Source: Escherichia coli (GTDB lineage Bacteria > Pseudomonadota > Gammaproteobacteria > Enterobacterales > Enterobacteriaceae). From it: 64,000 bases of DNA. Both the position numbers and the translations under genes were made by a program. The stretch lies in assembly GCF_051903065.1 (NCBI RefSeq), contig NZ_CP178438.1. One strand, 5' to 3'. Positions 13,473 through 33,844 of this stretch are shown here, in pieces (position 1 is the stretch's first letter; each line of letters opens with the position of its first letter). The notes beneath the pieces were generated by a model. The model was not told where the DNA came from. It ran no database searches and was given only the letters and a program-made list of their open reading frames with translations.

Positions 13473-13483
13473 ACCGTAGGCCT

Positions 13484-13593
13484 GATAAGACGCGCAAGCG
13501 TCGCATCAGGCAACCAGTGCCGGATGCGGCGTGAACGCCTTATCCGGCCTACAAGTCATTACCCGTAGGCCTGATAAGCGCAGCGCATCAGGC
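13484..13593. repeat. REP/BIME palindromic units in sdhB-sucA spacer
   Basis: Repeated CCGTAGGCCTGATAAGRCGC / GCGTCGCATCAGGC-type imperfect palindromes. Confidence 0.7.
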
Positions 13594-13772: not shown

Positions 13773-16574
13773 ATGCAGAACAGCGCTTTGAAAGCCTGGT
13801 TGGACTCTTCTTACCTCTCTGGCGCAAACCAGAGCTGGATAGAACAGCTCTATGAAGACTTCTTAACCGATCCTGACTCGGTTGACGCTAACTGGCGTTC
13901 GACGTTCCAGCAGTTACCTGGTACGGGAGTCAAACCGGATCAATTCCACTCTCAAACGCGTGAATATTTCCGCCGCCTGGCGAAAGACGCTTCACGTTAC
14001 TCTTCAACGATCTCCGACCCTGACACCAATGTGAAGCAGGTTAAAGTCCTGCAGCTCATTAACGCATACCGCTTCCGTGGTCACCAGCATGCGAATCTCG
14101 ATCCGCTGGGACTGTGGCAGCAAGATAAAGTGGCCGATCTGGATCCGTCTTTCCACGATCTGACCGAAGCAGACTTCCAGGAGACCTTCAACGTCGGTTC
14201 ATTTGCCAGCGGCAAAGAAACCATGAAACTCGGCGAACTGCTGGAAGCCCTCAAGCAAACCTACTGCGGCCCGATTGGTGCCGAGTATATGCACATTACC
14301 AGCACCGAAGAAAAACGCTGGATCCAACAGCGTATCGAGTCTGGTCGCGCGACTTTCAATAGCGAAGAGAAAAAACGCTTCTTAAGCGAACTGACCGCCG
14401 CTGAAGGCCTTGAACGTTACCTCGGCGCAAAATTCCCTGGCGCAAAACGCTTCTCGCTGGAAGGCGGTGACGCGTTAATCCCGATGCTTAAAGAGATGAT
14501 TCGCCACGCTGGCAACAGCGGCACCCGCGAAGTGGTTCTCGGGATGGCGCACCGTGGTCGTCTGAACGTGCTGGTGAACGTGCTGGGTAAAAAACCGCAA
14601 GACTTGTTCGACGAGTTTGCCGGTAAACATAAAGAACACCTCGGCACGGGTGACGTGAAATACCACATGGGCTTCTCGTCTGACTTCCAGACCGATGGCG
14701 GCCTGGTGCACCTGGCGCTGGCGTTTAACCCGTCTCACCTTGAGATTGTAAGCCCGGTAGTTATCGGTTCTGTTCGTGCCCGTCTGGACAGACTTGATGA
14801 GCCGAGCAGCAACAAAGTGCTGCCAATCACCATCCACGGTGACGCCGCAGTGACCGGGCAGGGCGTGGTTCAGGAAACTCTGAACATGTCGAAAGCGCGT
14901 GGTTATGAAGTTGGCGGTACGGTACGTATCGTTATCAACAACCAGGTTGGCTTCACCACCTCTAACCCGCTGGATGCCCGTTCAACGCCGTACTGTACTG
15001 ATATCGGTAAGATGGTTCAGGCACCGATTTTCCACGTAAACGCGGACGATCCGGAAGCCGTTGCCTTTGTGACCCGTCTGGCGCTCGATTTCCGTAACAC
15101 CTTTAAACGTGATGTCTTCATCGACCTGGTGTGCTACCGCCGTCACGGCCACAACGAAGCCGACGAGCCGAGCGCAACCCAGCCGCTGATGTATCAGAAA
15201 ATCAAAAAACATCCGACGCCGCGCAAAATCTATGCTGACAAGCTGGAGCAGGAAAAAGTGGCGACGCTGGAAGATGCCACCGAGATGGTTAACCTGTACC
15301 GCGATGCGCTGGATGCTGGCGATTGCGTAGTGGCAGAGTGGCGTCCGATGAACATGCACTCTTTCACCTGGTCGCCGTATCTCAACCACGAATGGGACGA
15401 AGAGTACCCGAACAAAGTTGAGATGAAGCGCCTGCAGGAACTGGCTAAACGCATCAGTACGGTGCCGGAAGCGGTTGAAATGCAGTCTCGCGTTGCCAAG
15501 ATTTATGGCGATCGCCAGGCGATGGCTGCCGGTGAGAAACTGTTCGACTGGGGCGGCGCGGAAAACCTCGCTTACGCCACGCTGGTTGACGAAGGCATTC
15601 CGGTTCGCCTGTCGGGTGAAGACTCCGGTCGCGGTACCTTCTTCCACCGCCACGCGGTGATCCACAACCAGTCTAACGGTTCCACTTACACGCCGCTGCA
15701 ACACATCCATAACGGGCAGGGCGCGTTCCGCGTCTGGGACTCCGTACTGTCTGAAGAAGCCGTGCTGGCGTTTGAATACGGTTATGCCACCGCAGAACCA
15801 CGCACTCTGACCATCTGGGAAGCGCAGTTCGGTGACTTCGCCAACGGTGCGCAGGTGGTTATCGACCAGTTCATCTCCTCTGGCGAACAGAAATGGGGCC
15901 GGATGTGTGGTCTGGTGATGTTGCTGCCGCACGGTTACGAAGGGCAGGGGCCGGAGCACTCCTCCGCGCGTCTGGAACGTTATCTGCAACTTTGTGCTGA
16001 GCAAAACATGCAGGTGTGCGTACCGTCTACCCCGGCACAGGTTTACCACATGCTGCGTCGTCAGGCGCTGCGCGGGATGCGTCGTCCGCTGGTCGTGATG
16101 TCGCCGAAATCCCTGCTGCGTCATCCGCTGGCGGTTTCCAGCCTCGAAGAACTGGCGAACGGCACCTTCCTGCCAGCCATCGGTGAAATCGACGAGCTTG
16201 ATCCGAAGGGCGTGAAGCGCGTAGTGATGTGTTCTGGTAAGGTTTATTACGACCTGCTGGAACAGCGTCGTAAGAACAATCAACACGATGTCGCCATAGT
16301 GCGTATCGAGCAACTCTACCCGTTCCCGCATAAAGCGATGCAGGAAGTGTTGCAGCAGTTTGCTCACGTCAAGGATTTTGTCTGGTGCCAGGAAGAGCCG
16401 CTCAACCAGGGCGCATGGTACTGCAGCCAGCATCATTTCCGTGAAGTGATTCCGTTTGGGGCTTCTCTGCGTTATGCAGGCCGCCCGGCCTCCGCCTCTC
16501 CGGCGGTAGGGTATATGTCCGTTCACCAGAAACAGCAACAAGATCTGGTTAATGACGCGCTGAACGTCGAATAA
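13773..16574 (+). CDS. sucA: 2-oxoglutarate dehydrogenase E1 component
   Basis: 933-aa ORF, recognised SucA sequence. Confidence 0.97.
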
Positions 16575-16588
16575 ATAAAGGATACACA

Positions 16589-17806
16589 ATGAGTAGCGTA
16601 GATATTCTGGTCCCTGACCTGCCTGAATCCGTAGCCGATGCCACCGTCGCAACCTGGCATAAAAAACCCGGCGACGCAGTCGTACGTGATGAAGTGCTGG
16701 TAGAAATCGAAACTGACAAAGTGGTACTGGAAGTACCGGCATCAGCAGACGGCATTCTGGATGCGGTTCTGGAAGATGAAGGTACAACCGTAACGTCTCG
16801 TCAGATCCTTGGTCGCCTGCGTGAAGGCAACAGCGCCGGTAAAGAAACCAGCGCCAAATCTGAAGAGAAAGCGTCCACTCCGGCGCAACGCCAGCAGGCG
16901 TCTCTGGAAGAACAAAACAACGATGCGTTAAGCCCGGCGATCCGTCGCCTGCTGGCTGAACACAACCTCGACGCCAGCGCCATTAAAGGCACCGGTGTGG
17001 GTGGTCGTCTGACCCGTGAAGATGTGGAAAAACATCTGGCGAAAGCCCCGGCGAAAGAGTCTGCACCGGCAGCGGCTGCTTCGGCAGCGCAACCGGCTCT
17101 GGCTGCACGTAGCGAAAAACGTGTCCCGATGACTCGCCTGCGTAAGCGTGTGGCAGAGCGTCTGCTGGAAGCGAAAAACTCCACCGCCATGCTGACCACG
17201 TTCAACGAAGTCAACATGAAGCCGATTATGGATCTGCGTAAGCAGTACGGTGAAGCGTTTGAAAAACGCCACGGCATCCGTCTGGGCTTTATGTCCTTCT
17301 ACGTGAAAGCGGTGGTTGAAGCCCTGAAACGTTACCCGGAAGTGAATGCTTCTATCGACGGCGATGACGTGGTTTACCACAACTATTTCGACGTCAGCAT
17401 GGCGGTTTCTACGCCGCGCGGCCTGGTGACGCCGGTACTGCGTGATGTCGATACCCTCGGCATGGCAGACATCGAGAAGAAAATCAAAGAGCTGGCAGTT
17501 AAAGGCCGTGACGGCAAGCTGACGGTTGAAGATCTGACCGGTGGTAACTTCACCATCACCAACGGTGGTGTGTTCGGTTCCCTGATGTCTACGCCTATCA
17601 TCAACCCGCCGCAGAGCGCAATTCTGGGTATGCACGCTATCAAAGATCGTCCGATGGCTGTGAATGGTCAGGTTGAGATCCTGCCGATGATGTACCTGGC
17701 GCTGTCCTACGATCACCGTCTGATCGATGGTCGCGAATCCGTGGGCTTCCTGGTAACGATCAAAGAGTTGCTGGAAGATCCGACGCGTCTGCTGCTGGAC
17801 GTGTAG
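16589..17806 (+). CDS. sucB: Dihydrolipoyllysine-residue succinyltransferase (E2 of 2-oxoglutarate dehydrogenase)
   Basis: 405-aa ORF; lipoyl domain (ETDKVV), Ala/Pro-rich linker, catalytic domain. Confidence 0.97.
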
Positions 17807-17825
17807 TAGTTTAAGTTTCACCTGC

Positions 17826-18000
17826 ACTGTAGACCGGATAAGACATTATCGCCTTCTCCGGCAATTGAAGCCTGATGCGACGCTTAACGCGTCTTATCAG
17901 GCCTACGGGAAGCACCGATGTAGGTCGGATAAGGCGCTCGCGCCGCATCCGACAAGCGATGCCAGATGCGACGCTTACACGTCTTATCAGGCCTACGGGT
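17826..18000. repeat. REP/BIME cluster in sucB-sucC spacer
   Basis: Several inverted copies of the GCCTGATGCGACGCTT / AAGCGTCGCATCAGGC-type REP unit. Confidence 0.7.
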
Positions 18001-18081
18001 GACCGACAATACCCGGAAGCGATACGAAATATTCGGTCTACGGTTTAAAAGATAACGATTACTGAAGGATGGACAGAACAC

Positions 18082-19248
18082 ATGAACTTACATGAATATC
18101 AGGCAAAACAACTGTTTGCCCGCTATGGCTTACCAGCACCGGTGGGTTATGCCTGTACTACTCCGCGCGAAGCAGAAGAAGCCGCTTCAAAAATCGGTGC
18201 CGGTCCGTGGGTAGTGAAATGTCAGGTTCACGCTGGTGGCCGCGGTAAAGCGGGCGGTGTGAAAGTTGTAAACAGCAAAGAAGACATCCGTGCTTTTGCA
18301 GAAAACTGGCTGGGCAAGCGTCTGGTAACGTATCAAACAGATGCCAATGGCCAACCGGTTAACCAGATTCTGGTTGAAGCAGCGACCGATATCGCTAAAG
18401 AGCTGTATCTCGGTGCCGTTGTAGACCGTAGTTCCCGTCGCGTGGTCTTTATGGCCTCCACCGAAGGCGGCGTGGAAATCGAAAAAGTGGCGGAAGAAAC
18501 TCCGCACCTGATCCATAAAGTTGCGCTTGATCCGCTGACTGGCCCGATGCCGTATCAAGGACGCGAGCTGGCGTTCAAACTGGGTCTGGAAGGTAAACTG
18601 GTTCAGCAGTTCACCAAAATCTTCATGGGCCTGGCGACCATTTTCCTGGAGCGCGACCTGGCGTTGATCGAAATCAACCCGCTGGTCATCACCAAACAGG
18701 GCGATCTGATTTGCCTCGACGGCAAACTGGGCGCTGATGGCAACGCCCTGTTCCGCCAGCCTGATCTGCGCGAAATGCGTGACCAGTCGCAGGAAGATCC
18801 GCGTGAAGCACAGGCTGCACAGTGGGAACTGAACTACGTTGCGCTGGACGGTAACATCGGTTGTATGGTTAACGGCGCAGGTCTGGCGATGGGTACGATG
18901 GACATCGTTAAACTGCACGGCGGCGAACCAGCTAACTTCCTTGACGTTGGCGGCGGCGCAACCAAAGAACGTGTAACCGAAGCGTTCAAAATCATTCTCT
19001 CTGACGACAAAGTGAAAGCCGTTCTGGTTAACATCTTCGGCGGTATCGTTCGTTGCGACCTGATCGCTGACGGTATCATCGGCGCGGTAGCGGAAGTGGG
19101 TGTTAACGTACCGGTCGTGGTACGTCTGGAAGGTAACAACGCCGAACTCGGCGCGAAGAAACTGGCTGACAGCGGCCTGAATATTATTGCAGCAAAAGGT
19201 CTGACGGATGCAGCTCAGCAGGTTGTTGCCGCAGTGGAGGGGAAATAA
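18082..19248 (+). CDS. sucC: Succinyl-CoA synthetase beta subunit
   Basis: 388-aa ORF, recognised SucC sequence. Confidence 0.97.
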
Positions 19249-20117
19249 TGTCCATTTTAATTGATAAAAACACCAAGGTTATCTGCCAGGGCTTTACCGG
19301 TAGCCAGGGGACTTTCCACTCAGAACAGGCCATTGCATACGGCACTAAAATGGTTGGCGGCGTAACCCCAGGTAAAGGCGGTACTACCCACCTCGGCCTG
19401 CCGGTGTTCAACACCGTGCGTGAAGCTGTTGCTGCTACTGGCGCTACCGCTTCTGTTATCTACGTACCAGCACCGTTCTGCAAAGACTCCATTCTGGAAG
19501 CCATCGACGCAGGCATCAAACTGATTATCACCATCACTGAAGGCATCCCGACGCTGGATATGCTGACCGTGAAAGTGAAGCTGGATGAAGCAGGCGTTCG
19601 TATGATCGGCCCGAACTGCCCAGGCGTTATCACTCCGGGTGAATGCAAAATCGGTATCCAGCCTGGTCACATTCACAAACCGGGTAAAGTGGGTATCGTT
19701 TCCCGTTCCGGTACACTGACCTATGAAGCGGTTAAACAGACCACGGATTACGGTTTCGGTCAGTCGACCTGTGTCGGTATCGGCGGTGACCCGATCCCTG
19801 GCTCTAACTTTATCGACATTCTCGAAATGTTCGAAAAAGATCCGCAGACCGAAGCGATCGTGATGATCGGTGAGATCGGCGGTAGCGCTGAAGAAGAAGC
19901 GGCTGCGTACATCAAAGAGCACGTTACCAAGCCAGTTGTGGGCTACATCGCTGGTGTGACTGCGCCGAAAGGCAAACGTATGGGCCATGCGGGTGCCATC
20001 ATTGCCGGTGGGAAAGGGACTGCGGATGAGAAATTCGCTGCTCTGGAAGCCGCAGGCGTGAAAACCGTTCGCAGCCTGGCGGATATCGGTGAAGCACTGA
20101 AAACTGTTCTGAAATAA
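19248..20117 (+). CDS. sucD: Succinyl-CoA synthetase alpha subunit
   Basis: 289-aa ORF; start overlaps sucC stop. Confidence 0.97.
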
Positions 20118-20216
20118 ATATCTGTAATAAGAAATAGCCCTCGCCGCTTCCCTCTACAGGAATGGCGAAGGGCTGTCGGTTTCGACATGGTTGGCCATCG
20201 TATGATGGCCTTTTTT
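20118..20216 (+). ncRNA. sdhX: 3'UTR-derived small RNA SdhX (RybD) at the end of the sdh-suc transcript
   Basis: About 100 nt directly after the sucD stop with two stem-loops, the second a GC hairpin plus T-run terminator; position matches the described sucD 3'UTR sRNA. Confidence 0.5.
20193..20216 (+). terminator. Rho-independent terminator of sdhCDAB-sucABCD / sdhX
   Basis: Hairpin GGCCATC-GTAT-GATGGCC followed by TTTTTT. Confidence 0.75.
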
Positions 20217-20352
20217 ATGTCTTAAACGGTTAACCACGGTCGAAATCTGACTGCAGGCTTGACTGCATGACCACAACCACTGTGGATTGCCGCGACCGGT
20301 GATGCTGCCAACTTACTGATTTAGTGTATGATGGTGTTTTTGAGGTGCTCCA

Positions 20353-20628
20353 GTGGCTTCTGTTTCTATCAGCTGTCCCTCCTGTTCAGCTACTGACGGG
20401 GTGGTGCGTAACGGCAAAAGCACCGCCGGACATCAGCGCTATCTCTGCTCTCACTGCCGTAAAACATGGCAACTGCAGTTCACTTACACCGCTTCTCAAC
20501 CCGGTACGCACCAGAAAATCATTGATATGGCCATGAATGGCGTTGGATGCCGGGCAACAGCCCGCATTATGGGCGTTGGCCTCAACACGATTTTACGTCA
20601 CTTAAAAAACTCAGGCCGCAGTCGGTAA
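20353..20628 (+). CDS. insA: IS1 InsA (transposition inhibitor, N-terminal part of InsAB' transposase)
   Basis: 91-aa [25 protein letters not shown]... recognised IS1 InsA. Confidence 0.9.
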
Positions 20629-21050
20629 CCTCGCGCATACAGCCGGGCAGTGACGTCATCGTCTGCGCGGAAATGGACGAACAGTGGGGCTATGTCGGGG
20701 CTAAATCGCGCCAGCGCTGGCTGTTTTACGCGTATGACAGGCTCCGGAAGACGGTTGTTGCGCACGTATTCGGTGAACGCACTATGGCGACGCTGGGGCG
20801 TCTTATGAGCCTGCTGTCACCCTTTGACGTGGTGATATGGATGACGGATGGCTGGCCGCTGTATGAATCCCGCCTGAAGGGAAAGCTGCACGTAATCAGC
20901 AAGCGATATACGCAGCGAATTGAGCGGCATAACCTGAATCTGAGGCAGCACCTGGCACGGCTGGGACGGAAGTCGCTGTCGTTCTCAAAATCGGTGGAGC
21001 TGCATGACAAAGTCATCGGGCATTATCTGAACATAAAACACTATCAATAA
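20547..21050 (+). CDS. insB: IS1 InsB reading frame (expressed as InsAB' via -1 frameshift)
   Basis: Overlapping -1 frame ORF; slippery A-run (TTAAAAAACTC) at about 20603 in the insA/insB overlap. Confidence 0.85.
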
Positions 21051-21560
21051 GTTGGAGTCATTACCGCCGCGACCGACCGCAAGCCACGAATAAGAACGAC
21101 GGCGAATTTCGAATCGTTACCTGATGCACTGGCTTCCCAGCGTTTGACCGTAGCGTTAAGTAAATCAACAAAAGCGATGTTCACCGCTTTTCGTCAAGTC
21201 GTGCCATTTGTCAGCCAGGATCGGGTCTTTACCCCGGATATTGCAGCATCGCAAAAATTCTTAGATGGATATGCTATAAATCAAAAATAAAATCTTTGTT
21301 GATTGTTTATCATAATATCCACAGATATGATAAATGATATCAATTTAATAATTTTCACTTAATGTGATTCCGGATAATTCGAAAGGCGCTGTGCTTTTCG
21401 GATTATTATTATCTGATTAAGATATTTGTCACGCCAGCCTTACTGGTTTATAAATGTCAATCATGATTCTTATAAATTATTTATTGCTGCTTTGGTTACC
21501 ATTACTTCGTAATAAGTAATGTATTTTTGATGGTTTAAACTATTTTTAAGGGACGGCATT

Positions 21561-22153
21561 ATGCGAGGGAAAATACCTAAAACGGAACTGCTGGTGACTT
21601 TTGAGGTCGTCGCACGTCATGAAAGTTATACCAGAGCGGCAGAGGAGTTAGCGTTAACCCAAAGTGCAGTATTCAGACAAGTAAGTGCGCTGGAGGAATT
21701 TTTACGTACTCCGTTATTTTCACACTCTAAAAAACGCATTTTTCTTAATGATACAGGGAAGTATTACCTGGGGATAGTAAAAGAAACATTAAATAAGCTG
21801 GAACGCGATACCAATACCATTATGACCTGGCAGCCTACGGTTCAGGTTATTGAACTTGCCGTTAATCCTACTTTTAGTACCCACTGGTTGATCCCAAATT
21901 TACATGAATTCACAAAGTTACATCCCGATATTATTGTTAATATTCATTCTTTAGCTAATAACGGCGATTTTCTTAATCGGGAGTACGATGCTGTCATTAT
22001 GCGCGAAAATTTTTGCGCGCCCTGGGCGGAAGTAGAATATCTCTTTGATGAGGAGATTTTGCCGGTATGCAGCGGCAGTTTGCTTGCAATGTCCGATCAA
22101 AAGCTGTCAGTGGCAGAACTGCTTACTGAGTTACCGCTTCTGCATCAAAGCAC
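21561..22153 (+). pseudogene. LysR-family transcriptional regulator gene, 3'-truncated by IS903-type element
   Basis: N-terminal LysR-type HTH (ESYTRAAEELALTQSAVFRQVSALEE) and start of substrate-binding domain; frame runs straight into the IS inverted repeat at 22154; about 200 codons of an expected roughly 300. Confidence 0.7.
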
Positions 22154-23210
22154 GGCTTTGTTGAATAAATCAGATTTCGGGTAAGTCTCCCCCGTAGCGG
22201 GTTGTGTTTTCAGGCAATACGCACGCTTTCAGGCATACCTGCTTTCGTCATTTTGTTCAGCGCTCGTACCAGGGCCATAGCCTCTGCAACCTGACCATCG
22301 TAGTCACGCAGTGTCAGTGAACCCCCGAACAGCTGTTTTACCCGGTACATCGCCGTTTCCGCTATCGAGCGACGGTTGTAATCTGTTGTCCATTTCCACC
22401 GCGCATTACTCCCGGTCATTCGCTGATTAGCCACTGCACGGTTACGGTCTGCATATTCACCGGGCCAGTAACCCGCACCTTTTCGGGGAGGGATAAGCGC
22501 GCTGATTTTCTTACGCCGCAGTTCATCGTGACATAGCCGGGTATCGTAAGCGCCATCGGCGGCGGCTGACCTGATTTTCCGGTGGGTTTGCCGGATTAAC
22601 CCGGGGAAGGCCTCTGAGTCCGTAACGTTGTTCAGCGACAGGTCAGCGCAGATGATTTCATGTGTTTTACTGTCAACGGCGAGATGCAGCTTACGCCAGA
22701 TACGGCGGCGTTCCTGGCCATGCTTTTTGACTTTCCACTCGCCTTCACCGAAGACCTTCAGCCCGGTGGAATCAATTACCAGGTGTGCGATTTCACCCCG
22801 GGTGGGCGTTTTGAAACTGACATTAACCGACTTTGCCCGCCTGCTGACACAGCTGTAATCCGGGCAGCGTAGCGGAACGTTCATCAGAGAAAAAATGGAA
22901 TCAATAAAGCCCTGCGCAGCGCGCAGGGTCAGCCTGAATACGCGTTTAATGACCAGCACAGTCGTGATGGCAAGGTCAGAATAGCGCTGAGGTCTGCCTC
23001 GTGAAGAAGGTGTTGCTGACTCATACCAGGCCTGAATAGCTTCATCATCCAGCCAGAAAGTTATGGAGCCACGGTTGATGAGGGCTTTATTGTAGGTGGG
23101 CCAGTTGGTGATTTTGAACTTTTGCTTTGCCACGGAACGGTCTGCGTTGTCGGGAAGATACGTGATCTGATCCTTCAACTCAGCAAAAGTTCGATTTATT
23201 CAACAAAGCC
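22154..23210 (-). mobile_element. IS903-type insertion sequence (IS5 family), 1057 bp, no target-site duplication
   Basis: 18-bp terminal inverted repeats GGCTTTGTTGAATAAATC at both ends; single transposase ORF; flanks TCAAAGCAC vs ATTTATCAG do not match. Confidence 0.85.
22210..23133 (-). CDS. IS903-type transposase (DDE, IS5 family)
   Basis: ORF ending ...KAGMPESVRIA, recognised as IS903 transposase; start placed at the GTG giving 307 aa (longest ORF extends to 23178). Confidence 0.85.
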   Translation of the reverse strand: MAKQKFKITNWPTYNKALINRGSITFWLDDEAIQAWYESATPSSRGRPQRYSDLAITTVLVIKRVFRLTLRAAQGFIDSIFSLMNVPLRCPDYSCVSRRAKSVNVSFKTPTRGEIAHLVIDSTGLKVFGEGEWKVKKHGQERRRIWRKLHLAVDSKTHEIICADLSLNNVTDSEAFPGLIRQTHRKIRSAAADGAYDTRLCHDELRRKKISALIPPRKGAGYWPGEYADRNRAVANQRMTGSNARWKWTTDYNRRSIAETAMYRVKQLFGGSLTLRDYDGQVAEAMALVRALNKMTKAGMPESVRIA

Positions 23211-23581
23211 ATTTATCAGGCGAAAGTGGCCTCTGTTCACTCAGAAACAATCACTCCCGGTAAGTCATACCTGTTTCATCGATACATTTAAGTGATTATT
23301 ACTAATGAAACAATAACATAACGGGCTTACGGTCGGTGCTCATAAAGGCAACAATCAATTAACTTTGATAAAAATATGTTATGTAAAATAGCAACAAATT
23401 GGCTACTCTAATCAATTGGTATTATAAAAAGTTGATTGGGCGGTTCTGTTAAATAAAACACTGGTTTTTTATCTATACCTTTTCATTGTAATAATTGTGT
23501 TGCATAAATATTTCACAATAAATTAACAATAAAATCACCAATGATCTATGGTTTATACATAATTAACATATTTGGTTGGTT

Positions 23582-23595
23582 TTGATATAAATCAA
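23582..23595. promoter_or_regulatory. FNR-consensus box in cydA upstream regulatory region
   Basis: Perfect TTGAT-N4-ATCAA (TTGATATAAATCAA) about 340 bp upstream of cydA in a long AT-rich leader. Confidence 0.5.
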
Positions 23596-23932
23596 TTTTT
23601 AATTCTTGAAAAAAATCTGCAAAACACGATAAATTGTCGTAGATCAAATTGGTGAGATCGTGACAATTTCGCTATAAATTGATCACTGTCGAAAAATGCA
23701 AATTTGCTCAATAAAAACCTGTTTATTGTAAGGATTTTGCGGCGTAATATAATTACGGGATCAATTTGGTTTATTCATTAACATATTTGTAACTTTTTTA
23801 TCATTGTCTTTTCCTCTTTTGATGAAATGGCAACGATAGAGGCGAGCAAATAATTTTGTATTGGGGCATGCGTGTGACCCTTTCTAACGGGGTTCACTCT
23901 CGGAGTCTTCATGCGATGAGCAAGGAGTCATG

Positions 23933-25501
23933 ATGTTAGATATAGTCGAACTGTCGCGCTTACAGTTTGCCTTGACCGCGATGTACCACTTCCTTTTTGT
24001 GCCACTGACGCTCGGTATGGCGTTCCTGCTGGCCATTATGGAAACGGTCTACGTCCTTTCCGGCAAACAGATTTATAAAGATATGACCAAGTTCTGGGGC
24101 AAGTTGTTTGGTATTAACTTTGCTCTGGGTGTGGCTACCGGTCTGACCATGGAGTTCCAGTTCGGGACTAACTGGTCTTACTATTCCCACTATGTAGGGG
24201 ATATCTTCGGTGCGCCGCTGGCAATCGAAGGTCTGATGGCCTTCTTCCTCGAATCCACCTTTGTAGGTCTGTTCTTCTTCGGTTGGGATCGTCTGGGTAA
24301 AGTTCAGCATATGTGTGTCACCTGGCTGGTGGCGCTCGGTTCAAACCTGTCCGCACTGTGGATTCTGGTTGCGAACGGCTGGATGCAAAACCCAATCGCG
24401 TCCGATTTCAACTTTGAAACTATGCGTATGGAGATGGTGAGCTTCTCCGAGCTGGTGCTTAACCCGGTTGCTCAGGTGAAATTCGTTCACACTGTAGCGT
24501 CTGGTTATGTGACTGGCGCGATGTTCATCCTCGGTATCAGCGCATGGTATATGCTGAAAGGTCGTGACTTCGCCTTCGCTAAACGCTCCTTTGCTATCGC
24601 TGCCAGCTTCGGTATGGCTGCCGTTCTGTCTGTTATTGTTCTGGGTGATGAATCTGGTTACGAAATGGGCGACGTGCAGAAAACCAAACTGGCTGCTATT
24701 GAAGCTGAGTGGGAAACGCAACCTGCGCCTGCTGCCTTTACTCTGTTCGGCATTCCTGATCAGGAAGAGGAGACGAACAAATTTGCGATCCAGATCCCTT
24801 ACGCGCTGGGCATCATTGCAACGCGTTCCGTGGATACTCCAGTTATCGGCCTGAAAGAACTGATGGTGCAGCATGAAGAACGCATTCGTAACGGGATGAA
24901 GGCGTACTCTCTGCTCGAGCAACTGCGTTCTGGTTCTACCGACCAGGCGGTTCGTGACCAGTTCAATAGCATGAAGAAAGACCTCGGTTACGGTCTGCTG
25001 CTGAAACGCTATACGCCAAACGTGGCTGATGCGACTGAAGCTCAGATTCAACAGGCAACCAAAGACTCCATCCCGCGTGTAGCGCCGCTGTACTTTGCGT
25101 TCCGTATCATGGTGGCGTGTGGCTTCCTGCTGCTGGCAATCATCGCGCTCTCTTTCTGGAGTGTCATCCGCAACCGCATTGGCGAGAAAAAATGGCTCCT
25201 GCGCGCCGCGCTGTACGGTATTCCGCTGCCGTGGATTGCTGTAGAAGCGGGCTGGTTCGTGGCTGAATATGGCCGCCAACCGTGGGCTATCGGTGAAGTG
25301 CTGCCGACAGCTGTGGCGAACTCGTCACTGACCGCAGGCGATCTCATCTTCTCAATGGTGCTGATTTGCGGCCTGTATACCCTGTTCCTGGTGGCAGAAT
25401 TGTTCTTAATGTTCAAGTTTGCACGCCTCGGCCCAAGCAGCCTGAAAACCGGTCGCTATCACTTTGAGCAGTCTTCCACGACTACTCAGCCGGCACGCTA
25501 A
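23933..25501 (+). CDS. cydA: Cytochrome bd-I ubiquinol oxidase subunit I
   Basis: Recognised CydA sequence; start placed at second Met ([12 protein letters not shown]). Confidence 0.97.
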
Positions 25502-31532: not shown

Positions 31533-32078
<546 letters not shown>

Positions 32079-32087
32079 GAGAATTGC

Positions 32088-32879
32088 ATGAGCAGTAACT
32101 TCAGACATCAACTATTGAGTCTGTCGTTACTGGTTGGTATAGCGGCCCCCTGGGCCGCTTTTGCTCAGGCACCAATCAGTAGTGTCGGCTCAGGCTCGGT
32201 CGAAGACCGCGTCACTCAACTTGAGCGTATTTCTAATGCTCACAGCCAGCTTTTAACCCAACTCCAGCAACAACTCTCTGATAATCAATCCGATATTGAT
32301 TCCCTGCGTGGTCAGATTCAGGAAAATCAGTATCAACTGAATCAGGTCGTGGAGCGGCAAAAGCAGATCCTGTTGCAGATCGACAGCCTCAGCAGCGGTG
32401 GTGCAGCGGCGCAATCAACCAGCGGTGATCAAAGCGGTGCGGCGGCATCAACGACGCCGACAGCTGATGCTGGTACTGCGAATGCTGGCGCGCCGGTGAA
32501 AAGCGGTGATGCAAACACGGATTACAATGCAGCTATTGCGCTGGTGCAGGATAAATCCCGCCAGGATGACGCAATGGTGGCATTTCAGAATTTCATCAAA
32601 AATTACCCTGATTCAACTTACCTGCCAAACGCCAATTATTGGCTGGGTCAGTTAAACTACAACAAGGGTAAAAAAGATGATGCGGCGTACTATTTTGCTT
32701 CGGTAGTGAAAAACTATCCGAAGTCACCAAAGGCTGCAGATGCGATGTTTAAAGTCGGCGTCATCATGCAGGACAAAGGTGACACCGCAAAAGCGAAAGC
32801 CGTATACCAGCAGGTTATCAGTAAATACCCTGGTACTGATGGCGCTAAACAGGCGCAAAAACGTCTGAACGCGATGTAA
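32088..32879 (+). CDS. cpoB: Cell-division coordinator CpoB (YbgF), TPR protein
   Basis: 263-aa ORF with signal peptide, coiled-coil and TPR regions. Confidence 0.95.
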   Translation: MSSNFRHQLLSLSLLVGIAAPWAAFAQAPISSVGSGSVEDRVTQLERISNAHSQLLTQLQQQLSDNQSDIDSLRGQIQENQYQLNQVVERQKQILLQIDSLSSGGAAAQSTSGDQSGAAASTTPTADAGTANAGAPVKSGDANTDYNAAIALVQDKSRQDDAMVAFQNFIKNYPDSTYLPNANYWLGQLNYNKGKKDDAAYYFASVVKNYPKSPKAADAMFKVGVIMQDKGDTAKAKAVYQQVISKYPGTDGAKQAQKRLNAM

Positions 32880-33042: not shown

Positions 33043-33118
33043 GGGTCGTTAGCTCAGTTGGTAGAGCAGTTGACTTTTAATCAATTGGTCGCAGGTTCGA
33101 ATCCTGCACGACCCACCA
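33043..33118 (+). tRNA. lysT: tRNA-Lys (anticodon UUU)
   Basis: 76 nt, GGGTCGTTAGCTCAGTTGGTAGAGC...CUUUUAAUC anticodon loop...CACCA. Confidence 0.95.
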
Positions 33119-33153
33119 CTAACCTAGTTAGTTGTAGTATCCAGCGTAGTATC

Positions 33154-33229
33154 GGGTGATTAGCTCAGCTGGGAGAGCACCTCCCTTACAAGGAGGGGGT
33201 CGGCGGTTCGATCCCGTCATCACCCACCA
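33154..33229 (+). tRNA. valT: tRNA-Val (anticodon UAC)
   Basis: 76 nt, GGGTGATTAGCTCAGCTGGGAGAGC...CUUACAAGG anticodon loop...CACCA. Confidence 0.95.
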
Positions 33230-33231
33230 CC

Positions 33232-33307
33232 GGGTCGTTAGCTCAGTTGGTAGAGCAGTTGACTTTTAATCAATTGGTCGCAGGTTCGAATCCTGCACGA
33301 CCCACCA
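33232..33307 (+). tRNA. lysW: tRNA-Lys (UUU)
   Basis: Identical copy of the tRNA-Lys sequence. Confidence 0.95.
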
Positions 33308-33358
33308 CTAATTACGGTGGGTTCGGTGGAAGTAGTTTGTAGTATCCAGCGCAGTATC

Positions 33359-33434
33359 GGGTGATTAGCTCAGCTGGGAGAGCACCTCCCTTACAAGGAG
33401 GGGGTCGGCGGTTCGATCCCGTCATCACCCACCA
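33359..33434 (+). tRNA. valZ: tRNA-Val (UAC)
   Basis: Identical copy of the tRNA-Val sequence. Confidence 0.95.
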
Positions 33435-33437
33435 CTC

Positions 33438-33513
33438 GGGTCGTTAGCTCAGTTGGTAGAGCAGTTGACTTTTAATCAATTGGTCGCAGGTTCGAATCCT
33501 GCACGACCCACCA
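33438..33513 (+). tRNA. lysY: tRNA-Lys (UUU)
   Basis: Identical copy of the tRNA-Lys sequence. Confidence 0.95.
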
Positions 33514-33593
33514 ATTTTAACATCAAACTCAGATGTTAAGCGTGAAGGATAACGTTGCGCCAGCAACGGCCCGTAGGGCGAGCGAAGCGAGTC

Positions 33594-33611
33594 ATCCTGC
33601 ACGACCCACCA
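33594..33611 (+). other. Orphan 18-nt copy of the tRNA-Lys 3' end (ATCCTGCACGACCCACCA) in the lysY-lysZ spacer
   Basis: Exact match to the last 18 nt of the tRNA-Lys genes with no upstream tRNA body. Confidence 0.6.
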
Positions 33612-33659
33612 ATCTTAAAGATTGGCCCCGAGTAAAAATCTTTCAGGTAACACCCGTAT

Positions 33660-33735
33660 GGGTCGTTAGCTCAGTTGGTAGAGCAGTTGACTTTTAATCA
33701 ATTGGTCGCAGGTTCGAATCCTGCACGACCCACCA
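33660..33735 (+). tRNA. lysZ: tRNA-Lys (UUU)
   Basis: Identical copy of the tRNA-Lys sequence. Confidence 0.95.
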
Positions 33736-33768
33736 TCCTGAATGATTAAAGCAGCATAATCCCGCAAG

Positions 33769-33844
33769 GGGTCGTTAGCTCAGTTGGTAGAGCAGTTGAC
33801 TTTTAATCAATTGGTCGCAGGTTCGAATCCTGCACGACCCACCA
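33769..33844 (+). tRNA. lysQ: tRNA-Lys (UUU)
   Basis: Identical copy of the tRNA-Lys sequence. Confidence 0.95.

Follow-up and report, generated by a model that had tools for sequence, protein, structure and literature searches.

The window, by which we mean the whole 64,000-nucleotide stretch of Escherichia coli DNA analysed here, carries sucA, sucB (odhB), sucC and sucD in the order known from K-12. sucD is the last gene of sdhCDAB-sucABCD, the operon whose mRNA is the parent of the small RNA SdhX. It ends at 20117, and the segment of interest begins at the next nucleotide and runs to the end of a U-tract at 20216. An IS1 lies shortly beyond the U-tract and an IS903B about 1 kb further on. 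The features to which we refer throughout are as follows.

19248-20117, plus strand: sucD (succinyl-CoA synthetase alpha subunit), an open reading frame of 289 amino acids with stop codon TAA, named sucD in strain 23CRST027 and in K-12.
20118-20216, plus strand: SdhX (RybD), long form, which begins directly after the sucD stop codon and ends with the U-tract, 99/99 identical to K-12 sdhX.
20136-20174, plus strand: long, imperfect, GC-rich upstream hairpin, present in both the MFE and the centroid fold, in the genus-variable portion of SdhX.
20146-20159, plus strand: katG-pairing stretch GCUUCCCUCUACAG, SdhX nt 29-42, which includes C34; Escherichia/Shigella-specific.
20175-20186, plus strand: weak 4-bp hairpin GUCG-GUUU-CGAC, predicted by folding, overlapping the 5' part of the seed.
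20179-20216, plus strand: predicted short form SdhX2, about 38 nt, with its 5' end at the G62/UUU RNase E site, placed by length only.
20181-20191, plus strand: seed UUCGACAUGGU, with core CGACAU at 20183-20188; equal to the published seed (Miyakoshi et al. 2019, NAR; PMC6393394).
20193-20216, plus strand: Rho-independent terminator GGCCAUC-GUAU-GAUGGCC + U6, found by folding and by pattern scan; the presumed Hfq-binding 3' module.
20289-20297, no strand: IS1 target-site duplication, left copy GCCGCGACC, 9 bp; direct repeat with a spacing of 777 = 768 + 9.
20298-21065, plus strand: IS1 (IS1A-like, 768 bp) with ends GGTGATGCTGCC... and ...GGAGTCATTACC, called 'IS1-like element IS1A family transposase' by PGAP in the matching strain.
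21066-21074, no strand: IS1 target-site duplication, right copy GCCGCGACC; direct repeat with 20289-20297.
22154-23210: IS903B with 33-nt imperfect inverted ends, truncating a LysR-family gene that starts at 21561.

We found that the segment at 20118-20216 is almost certainly the known small RNA gene sdhX, which encodes the 3'UTR-derived, Hfq-dependent RNA of the TCA-cycle operon end, and the preliminary description of this DNA, which had placed SdhX at the end of the sdh-suc operon, was therefore right. In the K-12 MG1655 reference, the ncRNA sdhX (b4764) is annotated at NC_000913.3 765050-765150, directly after sucD and on the same strand. Alignment with the K-12 sucD 3'UTR, which had been proposed as a check, was run and gave 99 identical positions of 99 through the U-tract. 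Over the 101-nt K-12 annotation, which spans 20118-20218 here, the identity is 100/101, and the first mismatch is at 20217 (nt 100 of 101, A here vs G in K-12), just beyond the U6. Downstream of 20217, the aligned flank is unrelated to that of K-12, and the nt-100 change together with this foreign flank could in principle slightly alter terminator efficiency. Divergence of the seed from characterised SdhX had been named as a possible refutation; the seed, C34 and G62 are all present and we found no such divergence. The segment is a full SdhX (RybD) member by each criterion that can be tested on sequence. Two open reading frames on the minus strand over SdhX (19943-20188, 81 aa; 20154-20276, 40 aa) were dismissed, being annotated neither in K-12 nor in the matching strain. 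SdhX, its biogenesis and its targets were reportedly described in 2018-2019, with De Mets et al. 2019 in PNAS said to be the primary E. coli paper. Since the present copy is the same as that of K-12 through the U-tract and the gene is intact, the finding is correct but ordinary, and its practical value lies in annotation, not discovery.

The predicted fold of 20118-20216 has an MFE of -42.1 kcal/mol compared with -25.7 +/- 3.4 kcal/mol in 200 dinucleotide shuffles (z = -4.87), and none of the 200 shuffles was as stable. Two GC-rich stem-loops had been claimed for this segment, the second of them an intrinsic terminator; both were recovered, while the count did not stand because a third, weak 4-bp hairpin lies between them at 20175-20186. 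The terminator hairpin occupies 20193-20210 (stem 20193-20199 / 20204-20210, loop GUAU) and is followed by U6 at 20211-20216; a pattern scan also calls it, with 7 pairs, 5 of them GC, and a loop of 4. A minor prediction of the fold is that the weak hairpin may sequester the first four bases of the seed core in the long form; the predicted 38-nt form folds as a free seed plus terminator, without this hairpin. Since processing of SdhX is not needed for regulation under overexpression (PMC6393394), sequestration by the weak hairpin would have at most a modulating effect.

We predicted target pairing from seed-restricted and hairpin-restricted duplexes only, against K-12 leaders. Duplexes between full-length SdhX and 100-nt leaders (RNAduplex) were rejected as meaningless end-to-end pairings of about -42 kcal/mol in which intramolecular structure is ignored. 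The seed is complementary to the start codon and second codon of ackA and pairs CCAUGUCGA at -2..+8 of the K-12 leader over 10 bp (-16.8 kcal/mol); in the seed-restricted duplex, SdhX UUCGACAUGG pairs with ackA CCAUGUCGAG across the AUG at the same energy of -16.8 kcal/mol. Both E. coli-specific determinants of target choice were also found. Numbered from the end of the sucD coding sequence, G62 is the G at 20179 and C34 is the C at 20151, and in E. coli G62 is needed for repression of fdoG and C34 for repression of katG (PMC6393394). In a seed-restricted duplex, GUUUCGACAU pairs fdoG AUGUCGAAAC at -20..-11 with C-13 opposite G62 (-16.8 kcal/mol). The katG-pairing stretch forms the CU-rich top of the upstream hairpin, and in the hairpin-restricted duplex GCUUCCCUCUACAG makes 14 contiguous pairs with K-12 katG at -20..-7, over the Shine-Dalgarno sequence. 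This predicted pairing agrees with the published 14-bp katG duplex and its C34G compensatory mutation (PMC6393394). In the near-identical strain 23CRST027, in effect the same genome as that of the window, ackA from -100 to +60 is identical to K-12, and the main target site is therefore intact.

RNase E processing of SdhX, its binding by Hfq and its repression of AckA come from experiments in K-12 and Salmonella (PMC6393394, PMC9438474). By analogy with these, the transcript from the sdhC or sucA promoter would run through sucD and stop at the 20193-20216 terminator, leaving the 3' end of the operon transcript at 20211-20218. RNase E would cut near the sucD stop codon and at G62/UUU, giving forms of about 100 nt (approximately 101) and about 38 nt, and the 3' hairpin and U-tail, to which Hfq binds, would be common to both. 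The U-rich processing-site sequence GG|UUU is present here. A promoter scan returned no promoter-like site directly upstream of SdhX, which fits processing and not independent transcription (PMC6393394). The single-stranded seed would then sit on the start and second codon of ackA, block initiation of translation and repress acetate kinase, and in this way expression of the TCA operon would be coupled to acetate and acetyl-phosphate metabolism. G62 would extend the seed pairing in E. coli so that fdoG is repressed, and the top of the upstream hairpin (20146-20159) would pair with the katG Shine-Dalgarno sequence. That the present strain transcribes SdhX, processes it with RNase E, binds it to Hfq and represses its targets is carried over from K-12 and Salmonella; what the sequence itself shows is identity, position, predicted fold, complementarity to three targets, conservation with covariation, and a gene that is intact beside IS1. 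By its sequence, this strain should keep the TCA operon linked to acetate kinase.

The 99 nt are present at a coverage of at least 80% in 5424 of 5426 complete E. coli genomes, with an identity of at least 99% in 4069 records and of 95-99% in 1350. Among representative E. coli variants, changes are confined to the upstream hairpin (AU to GG in its 3' arm), the terminator loop, or a C-to-U that keeps a G-U pair, and the seed is unchanged in every E. coli variant examined. To cover other genera, a DNA pattern (SucD MGHAG codons, gap, CGACAT, gap, TTTTT) was run over species-representative genomes and matched at least 120 loci. Among the matches listed, 100 with an Enterobacterales-type SucD C-terminus were retained; about 20 of the 120 listed were removed on their SucD C-terminal sequence, most of them chance matches outside Enterobacterales. 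The genera among the matches listed include Citrobacter, Enterobacter, Klebsiella, Kluyvera, Salmonella, Yersinia, Rahnella, Dickeya, Hafnia and others, and a homologue from Salmonella enterica subsp. arizonae (L065) was recovered.

Because the pattern itself demands CGACAU and a T-run, seed conservation in the cross-genus set is partly ascertained. The seed context UU-CGACAU-GGUUGGCC is nevertheless kept beyond the demanded hexamer in the 100 sucD 3'UTRs retained among the matches listed: the non-demanded neighbours hardly vary, positions -2 and -1 being U (93% and 98%), +6 being G (97%) and +8 being U (100%), and UGGCC comes next. The seed is thus under visible purifying selection across genera. 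The terminator stem, which the pattern does not demand, covaries in 86 Enterobacterales sequences, with 98.5% of cells paired and 72 double-sided changes compared with 24 +/- 3 in shuffles. None of 500 shuffles reached the observed covariation score, and slid registers of the stem all scored far lower. These data show selection on seed and terminator. Between the stop codon and the seed, the sequence is unrelated between genera, and in 91% of 92 distinct Enterobacterales sucD 3'UTRs this region forms a stable hairpin (MFE <= -8 kcal/mol; median z = -2.9). This suggests that selection on the upstream hairpin concerns structure more than sequence, as it would for a 5' protective element or one that positions processing. 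SdhX has been described as variable outside seed and terminator (PMC6393394), with which the cross-genus set agrees. In one Enterobacterales species (L125:11831-11872), the seed is tandemly duplicated (TTTCGACATTTTCGACATGG) before the terminator.

The present copy shares with E. coli K-12 SdhX (formerly RybD, b4764) its locus, strand, 99/99 nucleotides through the U-tract, seed, G62, C34 and terminator. It differs in the A at nt 100 (20217) and in its neighbour, which is a remnant of a LysR-type island plus IS1 here and convergent mngR in K-12. In Salmonella Typhimurium, SdhX1 is 87 nt and SdhX2 38 nt (PMC6393394). Salmonella SdhX has in common with the present RNA its origin in the sucD 3'UTR, the core CGACAU pairing ackA, and the terminator with U-tail, and it is processed by RNase E at a U-rich site, also found here, that lies immediately 5' to the seed (PMC6393394). 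In contrast, its upstream region is unrelated in sequence, it has U where E. coli has G62, and it is without the katG-pairing stretch; its targets are fumB and yfbV, whereas E. coli SdhX instead targets fdoG and katG (PMC6393394). As in CpxQ, SroC and NarS, which are likewise 3'UTR-derived, RNase E-processed Hfq sRNAs, the parental terminator serves as the Hfq module, the seed immediately precedes it and the sRNA has no promoter to itself (PMC9438474), while parental operon, seed and targets are different in SdhX. Among such sRNAs, SdhX is unusual in being poorly conserved outside seed and terminator (PMC6393394), as our cross-genus set also indicates.

An Rfam 15 scan of the window returned no SdhX/RybD match at the gathering threshold or at E<=10, and the weak matches that it did return were rejected as chance (isrD, 17.3 bits against a cut-off of 37; mir-889; sR55). 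Since the sequence is identical to that of K-12, Rfam 15 evidently has no SdhX model, and the null result is an annotation gap, not counter-evidence. For the same reason, the RNA is unannotated in RefSeq/PGAP records other than K-12, including that of the matching strain.

The IS1 beside SdhX arose by simple insertion and is flanked by a clean target duplication of 9 bp. Its right-end sequence is ...GTCATTACC at 21065, and the empty site ...GGATTGCCGCGACCGACCG... is found in strain ECNB21-M121; the site is also empty in O157:H7. The U-tract and IS1 are 81 nt apart, close to the approximately 80 bp given in the preliminary description, and the transposase genes lie on the plus strand and read away from sdhX. 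Since the insertion lies wholly past the terminator and has a clean target duplication, the sRNA gene is intact, as had been anticipated. The junction between the sucD 3'UTR and IS1 is rare: of 5426 complete E. coli genomes, just 2 carry it. A separate case is FDAARGOS_944 (NZ_CP065613.1, L005 2501-3360), in which a different IS1 variant lies inside sdhX and the 9-bp duplication TCGACATGG is the seed itself, so that the order is sucD, SdhX nt 1-73, IS1, a second copy of the seed with the terminator, and mngR. That insertion would be a natural disruption of SdhX, or its uncoupling from the operon. IS1 has thus landed near or in sdhX independently at least twice, 81 nt downstream here and inside the seed in FDAARGOS_944.

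The sequence directly after the U-tract (20217-20297 here) differs by E. coli lineage, and homology between the types ends a few bases past the terminator. The flank types are as follows.

K-12-like strains: convergent mngR.
O157:H7-like strains and the present window: an island of LysR, cobO, fumarase and dicarboxylate-transporter genes.
Other E. coli: an RtcB-family gene, or a TPR pseudogene.

Across E. coli lineages, no fewer than four unrelated cassettes begin a few bases or less from the U-tract. This variable junction and the recurrence of IS1 near or in sdhX are the sole mildly unusual aspects of the locus, and both are matters of context. The non-K-12 flank of the window is common to 994 genomes at a coverage of at least 80%, O157:H7 included.

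We considered whether the segment could be something other than a functional SdhX gene. It might be merely the operon 3'UTR and terminator in this strain, with no role in trans, the changed context or strain background blocking accumulation of the processed RNA. The flank after 20216 is indeed unlike that of K-12, an IS1 has been added 81 nt away, and the function of SdhX here is carried over from other strains. Yet all 99 nt through the U-tract are the same as in the functional K-12 RNA, the same flank is shared by the 994 genomes that include O157:H7, the ackA site in the near-identical strain is that of K-12, and the seed is under visible purifying selection across genera; we regard this explanation as very unlikely. 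The hairpins could also be chance structure in a GC-rich intergenic stretch, and the terminator-pattern scan taken alone would permit this, as it showed no enrichment across a 3.5-kb region (4 found vs 4.3 expected). The pattern match by itself therefore carries no weight, and the case against chance is made by the fold z-score, position and conservation. No shuffle was as stable as the segment (z = -4.87), the segment matches an sRNA characterised by experiment at 100% identity and is near-universal in E. coli, and the covariation of the terminator stem exceeds that of all 500 shuffles and of the slid registers. Identity and covariation already refute the chance explanation, to which we give practically no credence.

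The remaining alternative accepts the sRNA gene and holds that IS1 perturbs it, through an outward antisense promoter at the left end of the element or through read-through capture that alters 3'-end formation or stability. IS1 is only 81 nt from the terminator, and the hairpin read on the minus strand has no U-run after it, so that an antisense transcript would not stop there. A promoter scan of 20217-20400, however, gave no minus-strand site, and its only match in the IS1 end is an inward plus-strand site at 20305-20332. In addition, the transposase genes read away, the terminator is intact, as are the 81 nt of native flank, and an intrinsic terminator works via its hairpin and U-tract, both of which are unchanged. 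The chance that IS1 disturbs SdhX is slimmer still than that of a mere 3'UTR, and the sequence gives no apparent reason to expect an effect. A functional, intact SdhX gene thus remains the preferred reading of the segment.

Beyond IS1, the neighbouring island has been eroded further. We looked for a target duplication of IS903B and found no 9-bp repeat, its flanks being TCAAAGCAC and ATTTATCAG; IS903B is therefore tied to a deletion or rearrangement and not to simple insertion. None of the other genes of the O157-type island (cobO, class I fumarate hydratase, dicarboxylate symporter, DUF4387 and AtuA) is present here, and cydA follows next at approximately 23933. The activity of IS1 and IS903B has thus eroded the neighbouring island and stopped short of SdhX. 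We also hypothesized, as an idea that is itself unlikely, that the SdhX terminator forms the constant left border of a highly variable zone, prone to IS insertion, that extends from sucD to cydA, and that in this strain read-through from the TCA operon, which is strongly expressed, could feed the co-oriented insA/insB. If true, such read-through into insA/insB would couple IS1 activity to carbon metabolism.

Over the blocks compared, the window is 100% identical to E. coli 23CRST027 and 23CRST031 (human faeces, Ecuador), bar one repeat. This is a 47-bp stretch at the right end of IS903B (23164-23210), which is present tandemly twice in 23CRST027 and 23CRST031 and once in the window, and it is the sole difference seen over the 10.3-kb locus compared (15150-25403).

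The window holds other RNA elements. Rfam naRNA4, a REP/BIME-type nucleoid-associated RNA, scores above the gathering threshold at 13479-13549 (minus strand) and at 17923-17993 (plus strand), and the latter sits in the sucB-sucC spacer, in the same operon as SdhX. At 31979-32117 and 33043-33841 we found the CpoB/ybgF intercistronic RNA thermometer (142 bits), a cluster of seven tRNA genes and an RtT element, a set that fits the tol-pal / lysT-valT region of E. coli.
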